Assembly: GCA_951406725.2 (NCBI GenBank)
Contig: OX597831.1
Location: forward strand, 59,954,001-60,018,000
Source of the DNA: Octopus vulgaris
Taxonomy: Eukaryota
Direction: 5' to 3'
DNA: 64,000 nucleotides
The notes under the pieces were generated by a model, which made no database searches, was not told where the DNA came from, and saw only the letters and a program-made list of their open reading frames with translations. Below, piece after piece: positions 19,075 through 57,792 of this stretch (position 1 is its first letter; each line of letters opens with the position of its first letter). The translations under genes were made by a program, and so were the position numbers.

Positions 19075-19786
19075 ATAAATGAAAGAATGGAGTTGAACGA
19101 CGATTTAACAAAATTCCTTTATTCTCTACATATGTTTCGAAGGCTGCATATTCCTAATTACGAAGGAAAAAGGGGTGCATTATGCCGCCTTCTCATCAGG
19201 AAAAACAAGGAATTATGTCAGCATCAAGATGAACGAAAACTATTATATGACTGCCCACACGGAGCCCATAGCGATAAGGAGTGTTTCTTTAAAATATTCC
19301 GTTATAAGCAGTGACGTCAAAAATGATTGAATGTAGAAGATTCTAGAAAGTTCAAGGGTTCAAACTAGGTTGGAGGAAAGCGGTCTAAGAATAGGAAGGT
19401 GACAGGATGCAAGTCATATGAATGGTGATTTGTTGTTGTTTTCTTTTGTGATTGAGTGCCTATGTGTGTGTATGTATATAACTGCATTCGCGTCTATGTG
19501 TGTGTATGTGTGTGCGTGATTGTGTGTGTGGTTGGGTAGATGCCAAAAACAAACAGTGGTGAAGTGAAAGGTTTGTGTCTGTGTGTTTGATTGTGCTTAC
19601 GATAGAGTGAAGGAGAGAGAGGGAGAGGAGGGTGAGGTAGAGAGACAAAGGTAAAACATACCTCAATGAATTGAGGCATAATGCACCCCTTATTCCTTCG
19701 TAATTAGGAATATGCAGCCTTCGAAACATATGTCGAGAATAAAGGAATTTTGTTAAATCGTCGTTCAACTCCATTCTTTCATTTAT
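19075..19786. mobile_element. Non-coding PLE-LTR-like element with ~112 bp inverted terminal segments, abutting (TA)n
   Basis: 19075-19186 and 19675-19786 are near-perfect reverse complements (the same peptide MELNDDLTKFLYS appears in ORFs on both strands); the element carries a hammerhead. Confidence 0.75.
19122..19204 (-). ncRNA. Type I hammerhead ribozyme
   Basis: Minus strand: UUUUC-CUGAUGA-GAAGGCGGCAUA...UAUGCAGCCUUC-GAAAC-AUAU-GUA-GAGAA. Intact core, 12-bp stem II with one mismatch, palindromic stem III and stem I UUUUC/GAGAA. Confidence 0.85.
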
Positions 19787-22700
19787 ATATATATATATAT
19801 ATATATATATATATATATATATATATATATATATCGCTTGTAAATTATCTATTCAGGTACTTTCTGAGAGGGACAGAATAATAGATAGATACAGGTACAA
19901 ACCTTATGACAAATATTTCATAACTTGCAAATTTGCAAATAATTTGAGTTAAAATCTACGATAAATATAATAAAGTGCACTTTTATTTTTTTACTTTGCG
20001 AAGTGTTAGAAAAGCGAATTGTGAAATGGATATGTATACATGGAAAACATAAGATTCTCCGTAACATACATATATGCATACAGCCATGTGTTTACTGGCA
20101 CACTTAAGCGAATACTTAAACGAATGTCTATCTCAATACATCTGTATCCAAGATTTGTTTGTGTGTATTTATGCTCGCCTGTTTTTGTTTGAGTGTTTAT
20201 GGCAGTTAAGCATTTTAAGCATAAAACATTTTCATTCTATTTCAAAATATGTCTACTAGATACTTGATACACACAAACATTAACACGAAAAACGCACAAA
20301 CACTTCTAGTTTACCAAATATATACTTATAAAACATTAATATTAGCAAGCATATTATGATATTCTGATAAGCTTTTGTATATATGTTTTTTTATGGAAAT
20401 CATTCGATAAGAATTGGTATCCATGAATAATAAGAAGGAATAATAAATATTTGCAATAAATATATAGAAATTCAACAAATTATATTTACAAGAAGCAAAC
20501 AATTGAGATATCTCATTTTTGTTCAATTCTACTTAGTTTTTCTTCCTGAAATAATTTTTTTTTCTAAGGTACGAAAAATTCTATTGTGAAATTGTGAAAA
20601 ATCAAATGTATATTATTTATTCACAGCACGTTTAAAAACGTGATATAAAATGAATAGAATTTGTAAAACCGTAGAAAAATATAGAAGCTCAGACAATAAA
20701 TTGCCTTATGAATAACAATATTTAATTAAATATATACGTCGAAACGATGGTGATATTTAGCCGACAACTGACGAACAATTGAGCATCTTTCTTTTCGTTT
20801 ATAGTATTTATTCATTGTAGAGTTAATACTTCGTTTCTTTACTTTCCGTACCATTTCAATATGTATTTATATACATTAATATGTACAAACATACTCAGGT
20901 ATATGCACATGTCTCTATATATAAATATATACATATATATATACACATACACACACACACACACACACACACATACATATATATGCTAAATAAAAGACGG
21001 AATATGGAATATGCGAAACTTCTTTTTTTATTAATCATGACAATTGTTTTGACACTTCCAGCATCAATACCTCACGGGCGAAACATTTATCAACTGGTTC
21101 AAGAGCGCCCATAGGGACCGATGTGTCTAATCGGGTGATAAATAGCTACAACTCGTTAAAATAACATTTCCTCAAGCAATGTAACTTCTCATTTTGTAGA
21201 GAGAAAAGCAACAAAACGAAGGCAATATCTTCATTTATACAGAAGATTAAAAAAATAAAATCATAGATGCAAAAATGACACGAACGCGCAACACAGAAAG
21301 ATAAGTGTTAAAAATAAACATTAGCATATAGGGGTGTATAAACGTCCTCGCGCAGGCTGCATGGTGCGTGTACAGTCACTGATACAAGCATCCGGGAACT
21401 TGTAAGCATTAGCATACGTGTGGTTTAGTGCACTCACGATCACAAATCGAGTTAATTAGCTACTTGATGTTTATAAAAATAGGCGGTTAAACCTAAACGA
21501 AATCTATCTTTAACTTAAAGTAAATAATGTTAACAATTACTCAAATTCAGCCATAGTTTATATATACTAAACTATAAGATTGTATAATACACACAGTTAC
21601 TAAAACCAACCAAGGTATAATTTTTCTGGTTTGGTGCCTACTCACAGGGGAGAATTCACTAGCTATTTTCTTTCCACTATTTGCTCATCTACACATATTT
21701 GCACTGTTTTTGGTTCCAAATGAACTCGATCATTATTATTTTGAGTTTCAATAATGTACATTAGATTATAATGGTTATAGAAGACTTTTCAATAGTTTAT
21801 ATTCATCTGACAAGTGTACGATTATATCTCTTCTATTCGACAAAATATTCCTCTAGTTAGAATTCGCCATCAGCGTAAATTTATAAAGTTCATCATGGAA
21901 TAATTCAGCCATACGTCGCTGTAACTTGTGAGTATGTCCAGCGTCCGTCTTCACTTTGTATGTTTTAGCTGTTCTGGAGAGGATCTCCTCGGGGAATGAG
22001 ACACATTTTCAGCTCTTCGCATTTCGTGCCGTATGCAACATAGTCAAAATATTGATTTAATTACAACTCCTAAATTTCGCTACCACATGGTGCTTTTAGT
22101 TGTGAAAGGGAGATACACTACCTGGTCTATGATATCAGAGAATAAGCAAGAGATAGCTTTAATCGCTATTTCGAGAAATAGGATACCTTGTCTACGGATG
22201 GATGATGATAAATGTTGCTAGTTTCTTATCCACTACTCTTTAGTTCTTGTGTTTTTTAAAAACTTTTTGAAGATTCTATGATAAAAAGCGGTTAAATAAA
22301 CCTTATTCCACAGGTTGTCTAGAGAAGCCCTTTTGGGAACCGCATGCACCCTACCCATCTTTAGTTACCTTAGCTGAATACAGTTTTGGATTGGTCTGAT
22401 ATTTTCAGAGTTCGTTATGAATTCAAAGTCACGATGAACAGGGGTACCTTCTGACAATATATTTTTACTGGCGCCTATTGACCCCATATTTTCATATATA
22501 AAAGGTAGCTTCATCCTACACAAAGACAGCGATAAAAATGGGACAAATCATAACCACAAAACTGCGAGTACCACGTATTAAATCCTTTGTATTTTTTACT
22601 CCCAAAACTGGGTCACTATTATATTGCTCATCTTTGCCTTAATATCATGTTTTTAGATATAATCAATCCCTAGGTGTTGTTAGTGTTATCCATCAGTATG

Positions 22701-23743
22701 TTCTGCGCTTCTCCAACTTATCAGAAAGCATTCCTTTCAGCTATCATTTTTGGGGCATTTGGACATTCCCCTGAAATTTAGAAAACAGAGCTGAATTTTT
22801 TTTCTCATTGGTGTAGCAAGCCATTAATGTGATAGTGTTTCAGTGAAAAATATCTTCCTAGAATTGCCTTCCCCTACAGGAAAACAGGTAGATTCATATA
22901 CATCATCCTGTGTATTACAGTAGAAAAATATTCTTTTACGAGGAGAAATAACCGCATTATTTTTTCCTTTGTCAAGCATATCGTCTGCCAGTGCTATTGT
23001 TGGTTTTCCAACATTTACAGTCGAGGTTCTCCAATTAATATTTTTGTTCGTTTTCTAAATACACGTGATCAATATTAACGCTTAATGTGCAATTCATTTA
23101 CTATTATCTTTTATTCTATTATATTCATGAAATGTAATACAGAGGGCGTTGTCAATATTATTTGTGTGAGGCGTGGTTTTGAACTTCCATACTGATTTCC
23201 GTGTCTATATGTGGACATTAGAAAGTCGAACGAACATTACCTTAATAAATACTAAACCTGTTTTTAATGAAAGTCCAAAATGTTCTTTATGGCTAGATTC
23301 CAAGCTTTCCTATATGATAAATGAATTTAACATTATGAAAAGCACTAAAGTAATTTGGCTTTGAGGGACGTATAAATAAACCACATCATAAAACGTCAGA
23401 TGTGGATATCAACAGAAACATTAAATAACAACAGCCGCCTCAACTTGAACAACAACGAAAACAACGGCACCATCTGCAATAACACCACCGACAGCCGTAA
23501 CCACAACAATTGCTGACAGTAATAGAAGCAATAAAATCAAACTTTACAAATAATAATAATGTGTTGCTTAATTTTCATCATCGGTCACTTTCATATATTT
23601 AATAAATATTTATACAACGGCTTGCAATGCGGCTGGTAATGCTCAACCAAAGATACATACATACATGCATAAACACACAAATTCGGGCGCAAGCTCACAC
23701 ACATACGCGCACAAGCATACGTACACATACACACGCAAATATA

Positions 23744-24543
23744 CAGGCGGTGGTGAATATATTGTCGTCTGAATTACGCAAAATGAAAAAACTGACATTT
23801 CATTTTAAGAGATGTGTTTTCCAAAACTACATAAATGCGTCTTCAAATAATAAAGAGTAATTTTTTCCATAATATCGCCTTAGTCTTCAACCACAACATC
23901 CAGGCTAGTTCGAGCTCTCCTGCAGCTTTTCTGAAAATTGTCCTTTTTTAAGTTGGTAAATGCTCCCATAATACTTGCCTACAGTTCATATTTGCTGTTA
24001 CAAGGAGTTCTGTGGGTATCTCGCTAAACTGCGCCCCACATAATAATCAATGAGATTGCAGTCAGGGGTGTTAGGTACCCAAATGTTACAGGTACGGTGG
24101 TCGCAGAATGTTTCTGACAGCTTTGACTGGATTCTCCTTCTTGTGTGGCATGGTGCAGAGTCGTGTTGCCAGACACAGGTTCTTCCAACAGCCACCTTTT
24201 GAACCAGGACAGCAGTACCACCCTCAGGCACTTGATGTAGGCCTCTGTGTTGAGTGTGAGGCGGTGTGGGAAGATGAATGGAGGCAAGACGTCGCTATCA
24301 CTTGTAATCACTCCAAACTCCATGATGTTTATAGGATGTTTGATTTTCCTCACACTCGGTGCATTTCCGGAGATTGGCAAGCAGTACAGCATGCCATTTT
24401 GAAATTGCGTCGTGGTGTTGTTTTTTCTCAGACACAGTGTCCATCTAACCGTACACAATTATGTAGCCAACAAAATCAAACAACGCGCATGCGCGAAATT
24501 AGAAGTTTAAAGTGGCGGCAATGCATTTGCCCATTGTACCCTG
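23744..24543 (-). mobile_element. Internally deleted DD37D (maT-like) transposon with degenerate TIRs and TA flanks
   Basis: FGVITSDSDVLPPFIFP...; WQHDSAPCH...WVPNTPDCNLID has 37 residues between the last two catalytic Asp. Ends are TA-CAGGCGGTGG... and ...CCCTG-TA. Confidence 0.88.
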
Positions 24544-57600: not shown

Positions 57601-57672
57601 AGATGGTGTGTTGAAATATATATATAGCCATGACACATACTTTATTTTCTCTCCTTGTTTCTGTCTGTGTTC

Positions 57673-57708
57673 TTTTCTGCGGAAAAGCGTAGGCTCGAAA
57701 CGTTAAAG
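57673..57708 (+). ncRNA. Degenerate minimal hammerhead-like motif (family of 32326 and 33034)
   Basis: UUU-CUGCGGA-A-AAGC-guag-GCUC-GAAAC-GUU-AAAG. Confidence 0.45.
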
Positions 57709-57792
57709 CCTTTTTCACTTCCCGAACGTTAAACTAATATATGTGCTTGTTGTCTACACCACCTGTTTTCATCTTTTTTGGGGAATTCTCGC

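Follow-up and report, generated by a model that had tools for sequence, protein, structure and literature searches.

Nine hammerhead ribozyme motifs in a 64,000-nucleotide stretch of the Octopus vulgaris genome (the window) probably sit on the 3' ends of insertions, mostly old, made by Penelope-like elements (PLEs); four would belong to the remains of protein-coding PLEs, and one family, designated C, would be a 475-nt unit without an open reading frame (ORF) that PLEs have mobilised. PLE hammerheads and PLE-derived retrozymes are themselves already published, and our literature search found no report of either in cephalopods. The mobilisation of animal retrozymes by PLEs has so far been proposed from co-occurrence and sequence kinship, and family C unites a retrozyme-like unit and PLE insertion marks at one locus. 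Otherwise, the hammerhead cluster is the expected content of a PLE-rich genome.

Hammerhead motifs and their families

A preliminary description had placed nine hammerheads between 19122 (minus strand) and 57673 (plus strand), and all nine were located, each within about 10 bases (the coordinates of single hammerheads given below extend between C3 and H17). They combine the core and a NUH cleavage triplet (GUA, GUC, or GUU in every case) with stems I and II closing the core and an open end at stem I and are, as sequences, type I (minimal) hammerheads. The perfect core (CUGANGA plus GAAA) is present in five motifs, A, B, D, and the two copies of family C (C1 and C2). The other four, at 32326, 33034, 48579, and 57673, had been set apart as variant or degenerate, and indeed carry one or two core changes: U4C in E, U4C and A6G in F, A6C in G, and C3U, in addition to a broken stem III, in H. 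Only A and B are fully intact in the core, stems I and II, and the palindromic stem III; C2 departs from this only in having stem II flanked by an additional A on either side, in D the opening pair of stem I is broken, and C1 has a single broken pair in stem II. The inner four pairs of stems I and II are complete in A, B, C2, and E, and one or two stem I/II pairs are broken in C1, D, F, G, and H. Stem III is fully self-complementary (G-U allowed) in seven of the nine, the exceptions being C1 and H. Most of the hammerhead copies in the window are decayed, and these are probably dead.

When the motifs were aligned and compared with shuffled sequences, six unrelated groups emerged (A, B, C, D, E/F/G, and H); alignments between groups never exceeded the maximum of their shuffles, in agreement with the earlier estimate of at least five unrelated families. 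Within groups, C1 and C2 are identical at 264 of 299 aligned positions, and E, F, and G align mutually with z = 9-12.

These motifs resemble the hammerheads in PLE pseudo-LTRs described by Cervera and de la Pena in 2014 (PMC4209133), which share the CUGANGA/GAAA core, a stem I of 4-5 bp, the palindromic stem III, an extra base after A9 (here in E, F, G, H, and C), and the G10.1-C11.1 pair. That paper also describes many variable families per genome, opposite-strand pairs 100-700 bp apart, and mostly single copies, and in the part consulted names no cephalopod. In contrast to the hammerheads described there, the palindrome measures 8 nt in A, C, and D, stem II is long in A and D, where 54-62 bases separate the two halves of the core, and both C copies have an extra A before G12.

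Protein-coding remains and the anatomy of insertion

A coding remnant of reverse transcriptase (RT) or GIY-YIG endonuclease adjoins H and G. The decayed motif H (48584..48619, minus strand), with its C3U change and broken pairs in stems I and III, lies about 200 bases past the ORF end of a Poseidon-type PLE remnant (48814..49625, minus strand), which encodes an RT thumb and GIY-YIG, is broken by frameshifts and stops, and matches P0001 with an E-value of 6e-80. The decayed motif G (57677..57704, plus strand) lies in a short inverted stretch directly adjoining the truncated end of a broken Neptune-type remnant (57073..57662, minus strand; cysteine linker and GIY-YIG, profile E-value 1e-29) and extends to a (TA)n run; at the 3' end of the main copy itself, no matching hammerhead is seen. 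The clade labels are assumed from motif layout and known clade features rather than from a tree. Pfam gave no match on the three protein fragments of the window themselves; for the G remnant, a full HMMER search gave 58 matches, and in a word-index protein search 0 of 58 candidates reached E<=0.001. In the same family as G, motif E (32330..32356, minus strand) has, apart from U4C, an extra A after A9 and an ACGU stem III, and the decayed motif F (33037..33063, plus strand) faces away from it with (TA)n on its 3' side; E and F are perhaps two arms of one locus, as C1 and C2 are.

No PLE coding remnant was found in the window beside A, B, C, D, E, or F. Judging from these arrangements and alignments, E, F, G, and H are likely to be truncated ends of protein-coding PLEs. 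The earlier view of a single retrozyme-like population is therefore not supported, since four of its nine members are best read as ends of protein-coding PLEs and C1/C2, perhaps E/F as well, are arms of one locus. The other five (A, B, C1, C2, and D) have no ORF. The proposed link to PLEs, on the other hand, is supported: coding remnants lie beside H and G, E and F align with G, and PLE anatomy is found elsewhere. As described for the Penelope/Poseidon and Neptune clades (PMC8557442), RT thumb and C-terminal GIY-YIG are combined at H, and cysteine linker and GIY-YIG at G; unlike in those clades, only broken 3' remnants occur here.

The insertions show the 5' truncation, inverted copies, partial tandems, and (TA)n targets known from PLEs, and possibly their tails (PMC8557442; PMC11167929). 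Four of the five ORF-less motifs, the exception being D, have an inverted 5'-truncated copy, a partial tandem, or (TA)n flanks, and neither D nor H shows an inverted copy or a partial tandem. Outward-facing inverted copies were established by alignment at A, B, a second B locus, and C, and from orientation only at G and E/F. Five of seven ends defined by alignment lie no more than 14 bases from a (TA)5+ run (1.9% of random positions lie within 10), and H lies 1,746 bases from one. A putative tail equal to the start of the next unit measures about 20 bases in C1 and about 115-125 in B. The short inverted or tandem units next to (TA)n that had been described are supported, the tandems being partial.

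These structures can be accommodated in a single scheme. A PLE or unit-C locus lying head to tail would be transcribed as more than one unit, the GIY-YIG of a PLE would nick AT-rich or (TA)n DNA, and RT would begin at either of two closely spaced internal positions of the RNA, as the C1 tail suggests; both the nicking preference and the alternative internal starts have been reported for an anole PLE (PMC11167929). Early stops and fold-back would then produce inverted 5'-truncated copies and partial tandems such as those seen here. The palindromic stem III is predicted to pair two copies, which would cut weakly as a dimer, and cutting as a dimer is published for other PLE hammerheads. Because each piece keeps its 3' end, hammerheads would accumulate wherever PLE debris does. 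It should be mentioned that PLE-like pieces make up about 10% of the window with hand-set borders, compared with 6.83% of the O. vulgaris genome, so that the special density first attributed to this region is not borne out; the end that carries the hammerhead is the one that survives 5' truncation of a PLE copy, and the hammerhead density is in line with how abundant PLEs are.

Non-coding units and alternative origins

In family C, the full unit with C2 (45297..45767, plus strand) has 32% GC, no ORF (the longest stop-free stretch is 81 codons), and a (TA)n end. Its hammerhead (45558..45616, plus strand) has a perfect core with an extra A after A9 and before G12, and the triplet GUC. The inverted 5'-truncated copy (44912..45235, minus strand) extends beyond the end of the unit by about 20 bases, which belong to the start of the unit, and its hammerhead, C1 (45092..45149, minus strand), keeps a perfect core, with a single broken pair each in stem II and in the palindrome. 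Between the two lies a locus-specific junction (45233..45290), where a small fold-back is combined with 48 bp of the unit's 3' end in antisense orientation.

We compared 1,531 bases of families C and D with the contigs of four runs, out of 24 available, from two organisms; contigs only were used, and the RNA labels of runs are a guess. The listings cover 40 of 177 differences, 24 of 762 loose ends, and 32 of 7,291 pieces. An end-to-start joint of C occurs at one fixed place in all four runs and both organisms (four cases among 15 of 33 joint rows listed, plus two of 12 rows of a further table), each represented by one or two contigs per run; joints of likeness below 95 are often repeat-derived. 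The joint gives a unit of 437 + 38 = 475 nt, and listed contigs of diverged copies overlap so as to cover 45339-45760 with no insertion. Adding up the contig depths across both families gives a value hundreds of times that of the locus-specific contig (47.6 in run X1), although this is not a copy number. A PLE profile search of C gave no match. The fixed joint and the non-coding unit of about 475 nt support the proposal that a non-autonomous, ORF-less element is present, family C probably being a PLE derivative of this type. Like C on this reading, non-autonomous PLEs of the Chlamys type, for example MRC1 (PMC8557442), are ORF-less dependants with pseudo-LTRs and head-to-tail insertions; unlike C, they are green-algal and mostly lack hammerheads.

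Would these units then be true non-LTR retrozymes, that is, arrays that are transcribed and cut themselves into circles of about 475 nt, around which reverse transcription proceeds? For C, and also for B, D, and A, we regard this as unlikely. Family C has the form of a retrozyme-type unit (a few hundred bases, head to tail, no ORF, GC <45%), and its size, 32% GC, and lack of an ORF agree with metazoan retrozymes (PMC7229834). The joint occurs in contigs labelled as DNA and, by guess, as RNA from two organisms, the hammerhead lies mid-unit, so that cutting of a multimer would yield a permuted monomer, the circular folds of B (z -3.6) and C (z -2.1) are somewhat better than 30 shuffles each, and in B the beginning of the inverted copy lies 8 bases beyond the predicted cut. 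However, no two consecutive hammerhead-bearing units occur within the 64-kb window; the RNA-labelled X17 contig at the depth of the joint (46.5) is 754 nt long, exceeding a monomer, and a read-through transcript from a genomic copy fits at least equally well. The joint also lies 150 bases from the cut and is present in DNA runs, and is therefore not a mark of back-splicing; the arms of A and C continue through the cut site; and the anole PLE used mainly uncut RNA as its template, with no read ends at the cut.

Metazoan non-LTR retrozymes (PMC7229834; bioRxiv 10.64898/2026.07.22.740005) share with the present units a short, ORF-less, low-GC sequence with one type I hammerhead, a head-to-tail joint, dispersed monomers, and coexistence with PLEs. 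They differ in that the present units, known from sequence alone, include no two-hammerhead multimer in the window and bear PLE marks (inversion, a putative tail, and (TA)n) that the consulted parts of these works do not describe for retrozymes. The bioRxiv study, which proposes a PLE origin of retrozymes, covers 31 vertebrates, three insects, and a coral, and no mollusc. A combined reading, in which protein-free octopus RNAs of about 0.5 kb (C, B, perhaps D and A) cut themselves, circularise, and are inserted at (TA)n by the enzymes of Penelope with the full Penelope signature of inversion, tail, and partial tandem, appears to us unlikely. If true, it would supply the missing link showing directly that PLE machinery moves animal retrozymes, and family C would represent a functional variant of the core in which an A flanks stem II on either side.

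Another reading treats every copy as nothing more than what 5' truncation left of an autonomous PLE whose 3' untranslated region is long, the apparent short units being products of RT jumps or deletions. This is true or likely for E, F, G, and H, and most dispersed minimal hammerheads are so read in PMC4209133. It could extend to B, known from one locus, and to A and D, which have no defined 5' end; a D-family contig (run X13) extends 317 bases further without a listed match. For C, however, the joint at one place in four of four runs counts against it, because random jumps would scatter the joints; moreover, some inverted-plus-full copies share the unit start (joined from 45064 and from 45132 to 45324), and the whole unit is colinear among diverged copies. 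As an account of all nine, we find it improbable. No autonomous partner was found for A, B, C, or D, so that the case for their mobilisation by PLEs is one from anatomy alone. The defined 3' ends of family C are possible templates for the anole-PLE assay or for an octopus PLE protein.

The B unit (34840..35399, plus strand; about 555 bp, no ORF, 32% GC, a short (TA)n after it) carries a type I hammerhead (35053..35100, plus strand; found by the descriptor) with a perfect core, all stems paired, and the triplet GUA. It is preceded by a pseudo-LTR-like partial tandem of its 3' end (34581..34839, plus strand), giving 1.47 units at an offset of 551 bases at this one locus, and by an inverted 5'-truncated copy (34411..34579, minus strand) that matches 35108-35286 with 144 identities, 29 mismatches, and 7 gaps and begins 8 bases past the predicted cut. 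A second, more diverged locus (33239..33550, plus strand; E 0.029) consists of a 3'-end fold-back only, has (TA)n on both sides, and contains no hammerhead. By its sequence, B, like C, is probably a non-autonomous ORF-less unit.

That B, and perhaps C and D, are rolling-circle or fold-back DNA elements (Helentron- or HINE-like) with the hammerhead as cargo is very improbable. An AT-rich stem-loop at the B end and the fold-back arms would fit such an origin, B may resemble a Helentron, and its tail exceeds the 30-40 bases described for PLEs; against this, the B arms share an outer end and measure about 110 and 165 bases at the two loci, a difference expected from 5' truncation, B includes a partial tandem, and both loci lie in (TA)n. 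The tblastn matches upstream of B and inside C were discarded as noise (E 0.003-0.006, subjects of 220-270 bases, about 90 queries).

No ORF was seen in families A and D. The main copy of A (18927..19675, minus strand) lacks a PLE coding remnant, and its left border is assumed to lie at a (TA)n run. Its hammerhead, found by the descriptor (19127..19199 from C3 to H17, minus strand), has a perfect core, an 8-nt palindromic stem III, and the triplet GUA. The inverted 5'-truncated copy (19675..19783, plus strand) retains only the 3' half of the hammerhead, with the triplet GUC, stops at (TA)n, and is identical to the main copy at 107 of 109 positions. In sequence, A is the most intact and youngest hammerhead copy, suited to a cleavage test. 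The D element (44230..44920, minus strand) is at least 610 bp long without its insert, a high-depth repeat piece (about 44341-44417) skipped by other D copies, and is multi-copy in both organisms. Its type I hammerhead (44608..44688, minus strand) has a perfect core, a 9-bp stem II, and an 8-nt palindrome.

Support for the motifs

Chance was modelled with 100 block-wise dinucleotide shuffles. The strict descriptor found three motifs (shuffle mean 0.01, maximum 1) and the one-deviation descriptor five (mean 0.19, maximum 3), counts reached in none of the shuffles; two deviations gave eight (mean 1.88), of which three, at 25155, 17201, and 3062, were unlisted low-score matches and were set aside as chance. 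None of the descriptor settings picked up C1, F, G, or H, which were accepted because of family likeness (C1, F, and G) or context (H). In run X1, other copies restore the first stem I pair of D, with 44607 A>T (19410/19631 depth), and carry 45611 G>A in C (9248/9557 depth), which makes the C palindrome fully Watson-Crick; these changes come from the 40 of 177 differences listed. As other copies read A at 45611, a CpG origin of the decayed palindrome was ruled out. Rfam gave no match to any motif at gathering thresholds, nor, at E<=10, a hammerhead family among the best 150 of 209 matches, those listed being microsatellite-driven miRNA and snoRNA noise. The idea that AT-rich repeat DNA yielded the motifs by chance, to which the silence of Rfam and the chance yield of relaxed patterns for F, G, and H taken singly might lend credit, can practically be dismissed given the shuffles, the restored pairs, and the family and protein context of the weak motifs, and for A, B, C, and D it is already largely refuted.

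A hammerhead motif does not amount to activity, since eight of nine predicted Xenopus retrozyme dimers were uncut in vitro. Minimum free energy folds are better than shuffles only for A (z -2.7) and D (z -3.1), those of B, C1, and C2 being no better; in cofolding, two molecules paired through stem III in the case of A, D, C1, and C2, and not in that of B. Loop II spans 31-62 bases in A-D, unlike the compact canonical form. Arm pairing is 0.92 within a motif and 0.44-0.53 across families, a partly circular comparison in that the motifs were chosen for their stems. ARAGORN found no tRNAs in the window. A scan of metagenome sequence, using a pattern without the first core bases, returned four loci with no similarity to the window beyond the motif; three are of the same design, two carry the canonical core in register, and one is a chance match in bacterial coding sequence.

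Nine hammerhead motifs in six groups

The preliminary description had listed about nine hammerhead motifs from at least five unrelated families, and had read them as non-autonomous, retrozyme-like elements mobilized by Penelope-like elements (PLEs). The observation is real, and all nine motifs are present. Labelled by the position of C3, they are A (19199, minus strand), E (32356, minus), F (33037, plus), B (35053, plus), D (44688, minus), C1 (45149, minus), C2 (45558, plus), H (48619, minus), and G (57677, plus), with a perfect core in five of the nine. A strict structure-aware descriptor matched three of them (A, B, and C2; shuffle mean, 0.01), and a descriptor allowing one deviation added D and E to give five matches (shuffle mean, 0.19); neither count was reached in any of 100 shuffles. 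C1, F, G, and H have decayed beyond the descriptor and are counted in because of their relatives or their setting. When the motifs were aligned pairwise and compared with shuffled controls, they fell into six groups (A, B, C, D, E/F/G, and H), in agreement with the claim of five or more families. An Rfam search of the window recognized none of the nine motifs, and only A and D folded better than shuffles as isolated strands. Position 4 of the core is C in both E (32356) and F (33037), and U in G; the C in E and F may be a family-wide U4C variant instead of decay (U4C is treated in PMC3088659). The window has a GC content of 29–37% and 75 tandem-repeat rows, chiefly (TA)n, (CA)n, and (AAT)n.

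The proposed reading was half right. The nine motifs probably form a mixed set, in which end-pieces of coding PLEs stand together with at least one, and probably two, PLE-dependent families that have no open reading frame (ORF). Minimal hammerheads have been described in PLEs, including opposite-strand pairs 100–700 bp apart, with a proposed circle route (PMC4209133); animal retrozymes, including those of a mollusc, have been described as well (PMC7229834), and a PLE origin has been proposed for them (bioRxiv 10.64898/2026.07.22.740005); the subject is reviewed in PMC6765202 and PMC7761336. The supplement of one octopus repeat paper (PMC13282606) contains no match for hammerhead, ribozyme, or retrozyme, the accessible text of another (PMC8967140) contains none for ribozyme, and no report of a cephalopod hammerhead was found in the literature searched, which consisted mostly of open papers, without Repbase. 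The known association between PLEs and hammerheads is extended here to a probable octopus, with a testable addition: a retrozyme-sized unit carrying PLE insertion marks.

Motifs grouped with coding PLE remnants

Judged from sequence, four motifs (E, F, G, and H) belong with coding PLE remnants. H sits about 200 bases past a broken frame containing the reverse transcriptase (RT) thumb and GIY-YIG (49625–48814), which matches the RVT_1-bearing protein P0001 with a tblastn E-value of 6e-80. Among 35 relatives of the window's PLE remnant, the one named protein is from Octopus sinensis and belongs to the class of highest identity (67%), so an octopus source is likely. On the opposite strand, G abuts the truncated end of a cysteine-linker and GIY-YIG remnant (57662–57073), as an inverted 5'-truncated copy would. 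This remnant has 58 relatives (profile E-value, 1e-29), and all seven of the relatives checked match the Pfam GIY-YIG model, six of them above the curated cut-off. E and F align to G as members of the same family (z of 9–12). We take the H-side remnant to be Poseidon-type and the G-side remnant to be Neptune-type, an assignment made by motif layout and clade features, not by a tree.

Between the end of the Poseidon-type ORF and hammerhead H is a tRNA-like segment (48680–48780, minus strand) that contains a Pol III B-box (48731) and is followed by decayed (AAT)n. ARAGORN makes no tRNA call on this segment, which may represent either an inserted SINE or an internal promoter ahead of H. A third PLE coding scrap (35440–35660, minus strand; profile E-value, 0.001), comprising a linker and the start of GIY-YIG, stops at the (TA)n on the right side of B and has no nearby hammerhead of its own. 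The same hammerhead design occurs in three of four metagenome loci, with the canonical core in register in two, the search pattern having omitted the first core bases. In metagenome contig L001 (2440–2600), the upstream flank of a minimal hammerhead recurs, inverted, behind the hammerhead; by this layout, the locus is a PLE-like fold-back in another eukaryote.

Insertion anatomy and family C

No PLE coding neighbour stands beside A, B, C1, C2, or D, and all of these except D show PLE insertion anatomy. A has a 109-base inverted copy (107/109 identical) that terminates at (TA)n. B is arranged in the order (TA)n, inverted copy, 259-base partial copy, unit of about 555 bases, and (TA)n, and another B fold-back, which has diverged further, occupies 33239–33550. 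The two copies of C face outward (264/299 identical). No inverted partner of D was seen, and its 3' end adjoins (TA)n. The layouts of A, B, and C match the arrangement described for PLEs, namely 5' truncation, partial tandems, an inverted truncated copy, a 30–40-bp tail, and a bias to (TA)n (PMC8557442). Nine of 13 scored ends lie within 14 bases of (TA)5+. Because several of these were chosen at the repeat edge, the fair count is that of the alignment-fixed ends, five of seven; of random positions, 1.9% fall within 10 bases of such a run. C and D lie together in a single block with a (TA)n run on either side. At 44900–44925, the tail of C1 overlaps D at its 5' edge on a common short AT-rich motif, so C may have inserted at the unit boundary of D. 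Elsewhere, a perfect 80-base hairpin (36050–36129), with 25-base inverted arms around (TA)15, may be a very small insertion of the same fold-back kind.

Contigs from four of 24 sequencing runs were aligned to 44230–45760 at a likeness threshold of 80%, and these contigs show C and D to be multi-copy families in organisms A and B. The 3' end of the C unit is linked to 45309–45347 in all four runs. Joints of the unit's end to its start account for four of the 15 joints listed among 33 (44921–45310, 44922–45309, 44922–45330, and 45740–45347) and for two of the 12 listed from a second table, each represented by one or two contigs; joints at a likeness below 95 often come from repeats. A joint that links 45760 to 45324 through 38 intervening letters yields a unit of 475 nt, and in run X13 three contigs have a loose end at 44922 that is, by eye, the reverse of the unit start. 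Contigs of diverged copies overlap without insert over 45339–45760, so the absence of an ORF in C does not stem from a deletion peculiar to this copy; no stretch free of stops exceeds 81 codons. Family C is, on this sequence evidence, a short unit that does not code for protein. C1 continues for about 20 bases past the end of the unit and into its start, a tail of the same kind as one traced in an anole PLE to two internal RT start sites (PMC11167929). Other copies restore the palindrome of C (45611) and stem I of D (44607). The locus-specific junction is crossed by a 283-base contig from organism B that has four differences, so the insertion of C at this locus likely predates the split of organisms A and B; run X1 may derive from the same source as the window and does not count as independent.

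Circles, cleavage, and density

The end-to-start joint of C marks a tandem or a tail and not a back-splice, since it is also present in DNA runs and is 150 bases away from the predicted cut. The X17 contig with a depth equal to that of the joint is 754 nt long (X13 and X17 are labelled as RNA by guess). Consecutive hammerhead-bearing units, by which active retrozymes are recognized (bioRxiv 10.64898/2026.07.22.740005), do not occur even as a pair within the 64-kb window. In the anole PLE, the hammerhead required protein, the main template was uncut RNA, and no reads ended at the cut (PMC11167929). Minimal PLE hammerheads are reported to cut poorly and only as dimers (PMC4209133), and eight of nine Xenopus dimers showed no cutting (bioRxiv 10.64898/2026.07.22.740005).

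The suggestion of a special hammerhead density is not supported. PLE-like pieces cover about 6.6 kb, or 10% of the window with borders set by hand, against 6.83% (190 families) in the O. vulgaris genome (PMC13282606), and since truncated copies retain the hammerhead end, nine motifs at about seven loci are unsurprising. Published totals run to thousands in a genome: more than 6,000 hammerheads in 16 families are reported from a coral and about 5,000 from a mussel (PMC7229834), and about 9,000 from Xenopus (PMC4209133).

Two inverted 600-base copies of a decayed element, 70% identical, lie at 15019–15618 and 23753–24360. We take its translation to resemble a Tc1/mariner transposase. Very abundant repeat pieces, presumably SINE-like, are found at 17987–18191, 27135–27327, 32473–32657, 43998–44181, and 44341–44417, and the last of these, inside D, has the highest contig depth of the aligned stretch (44230–45760).
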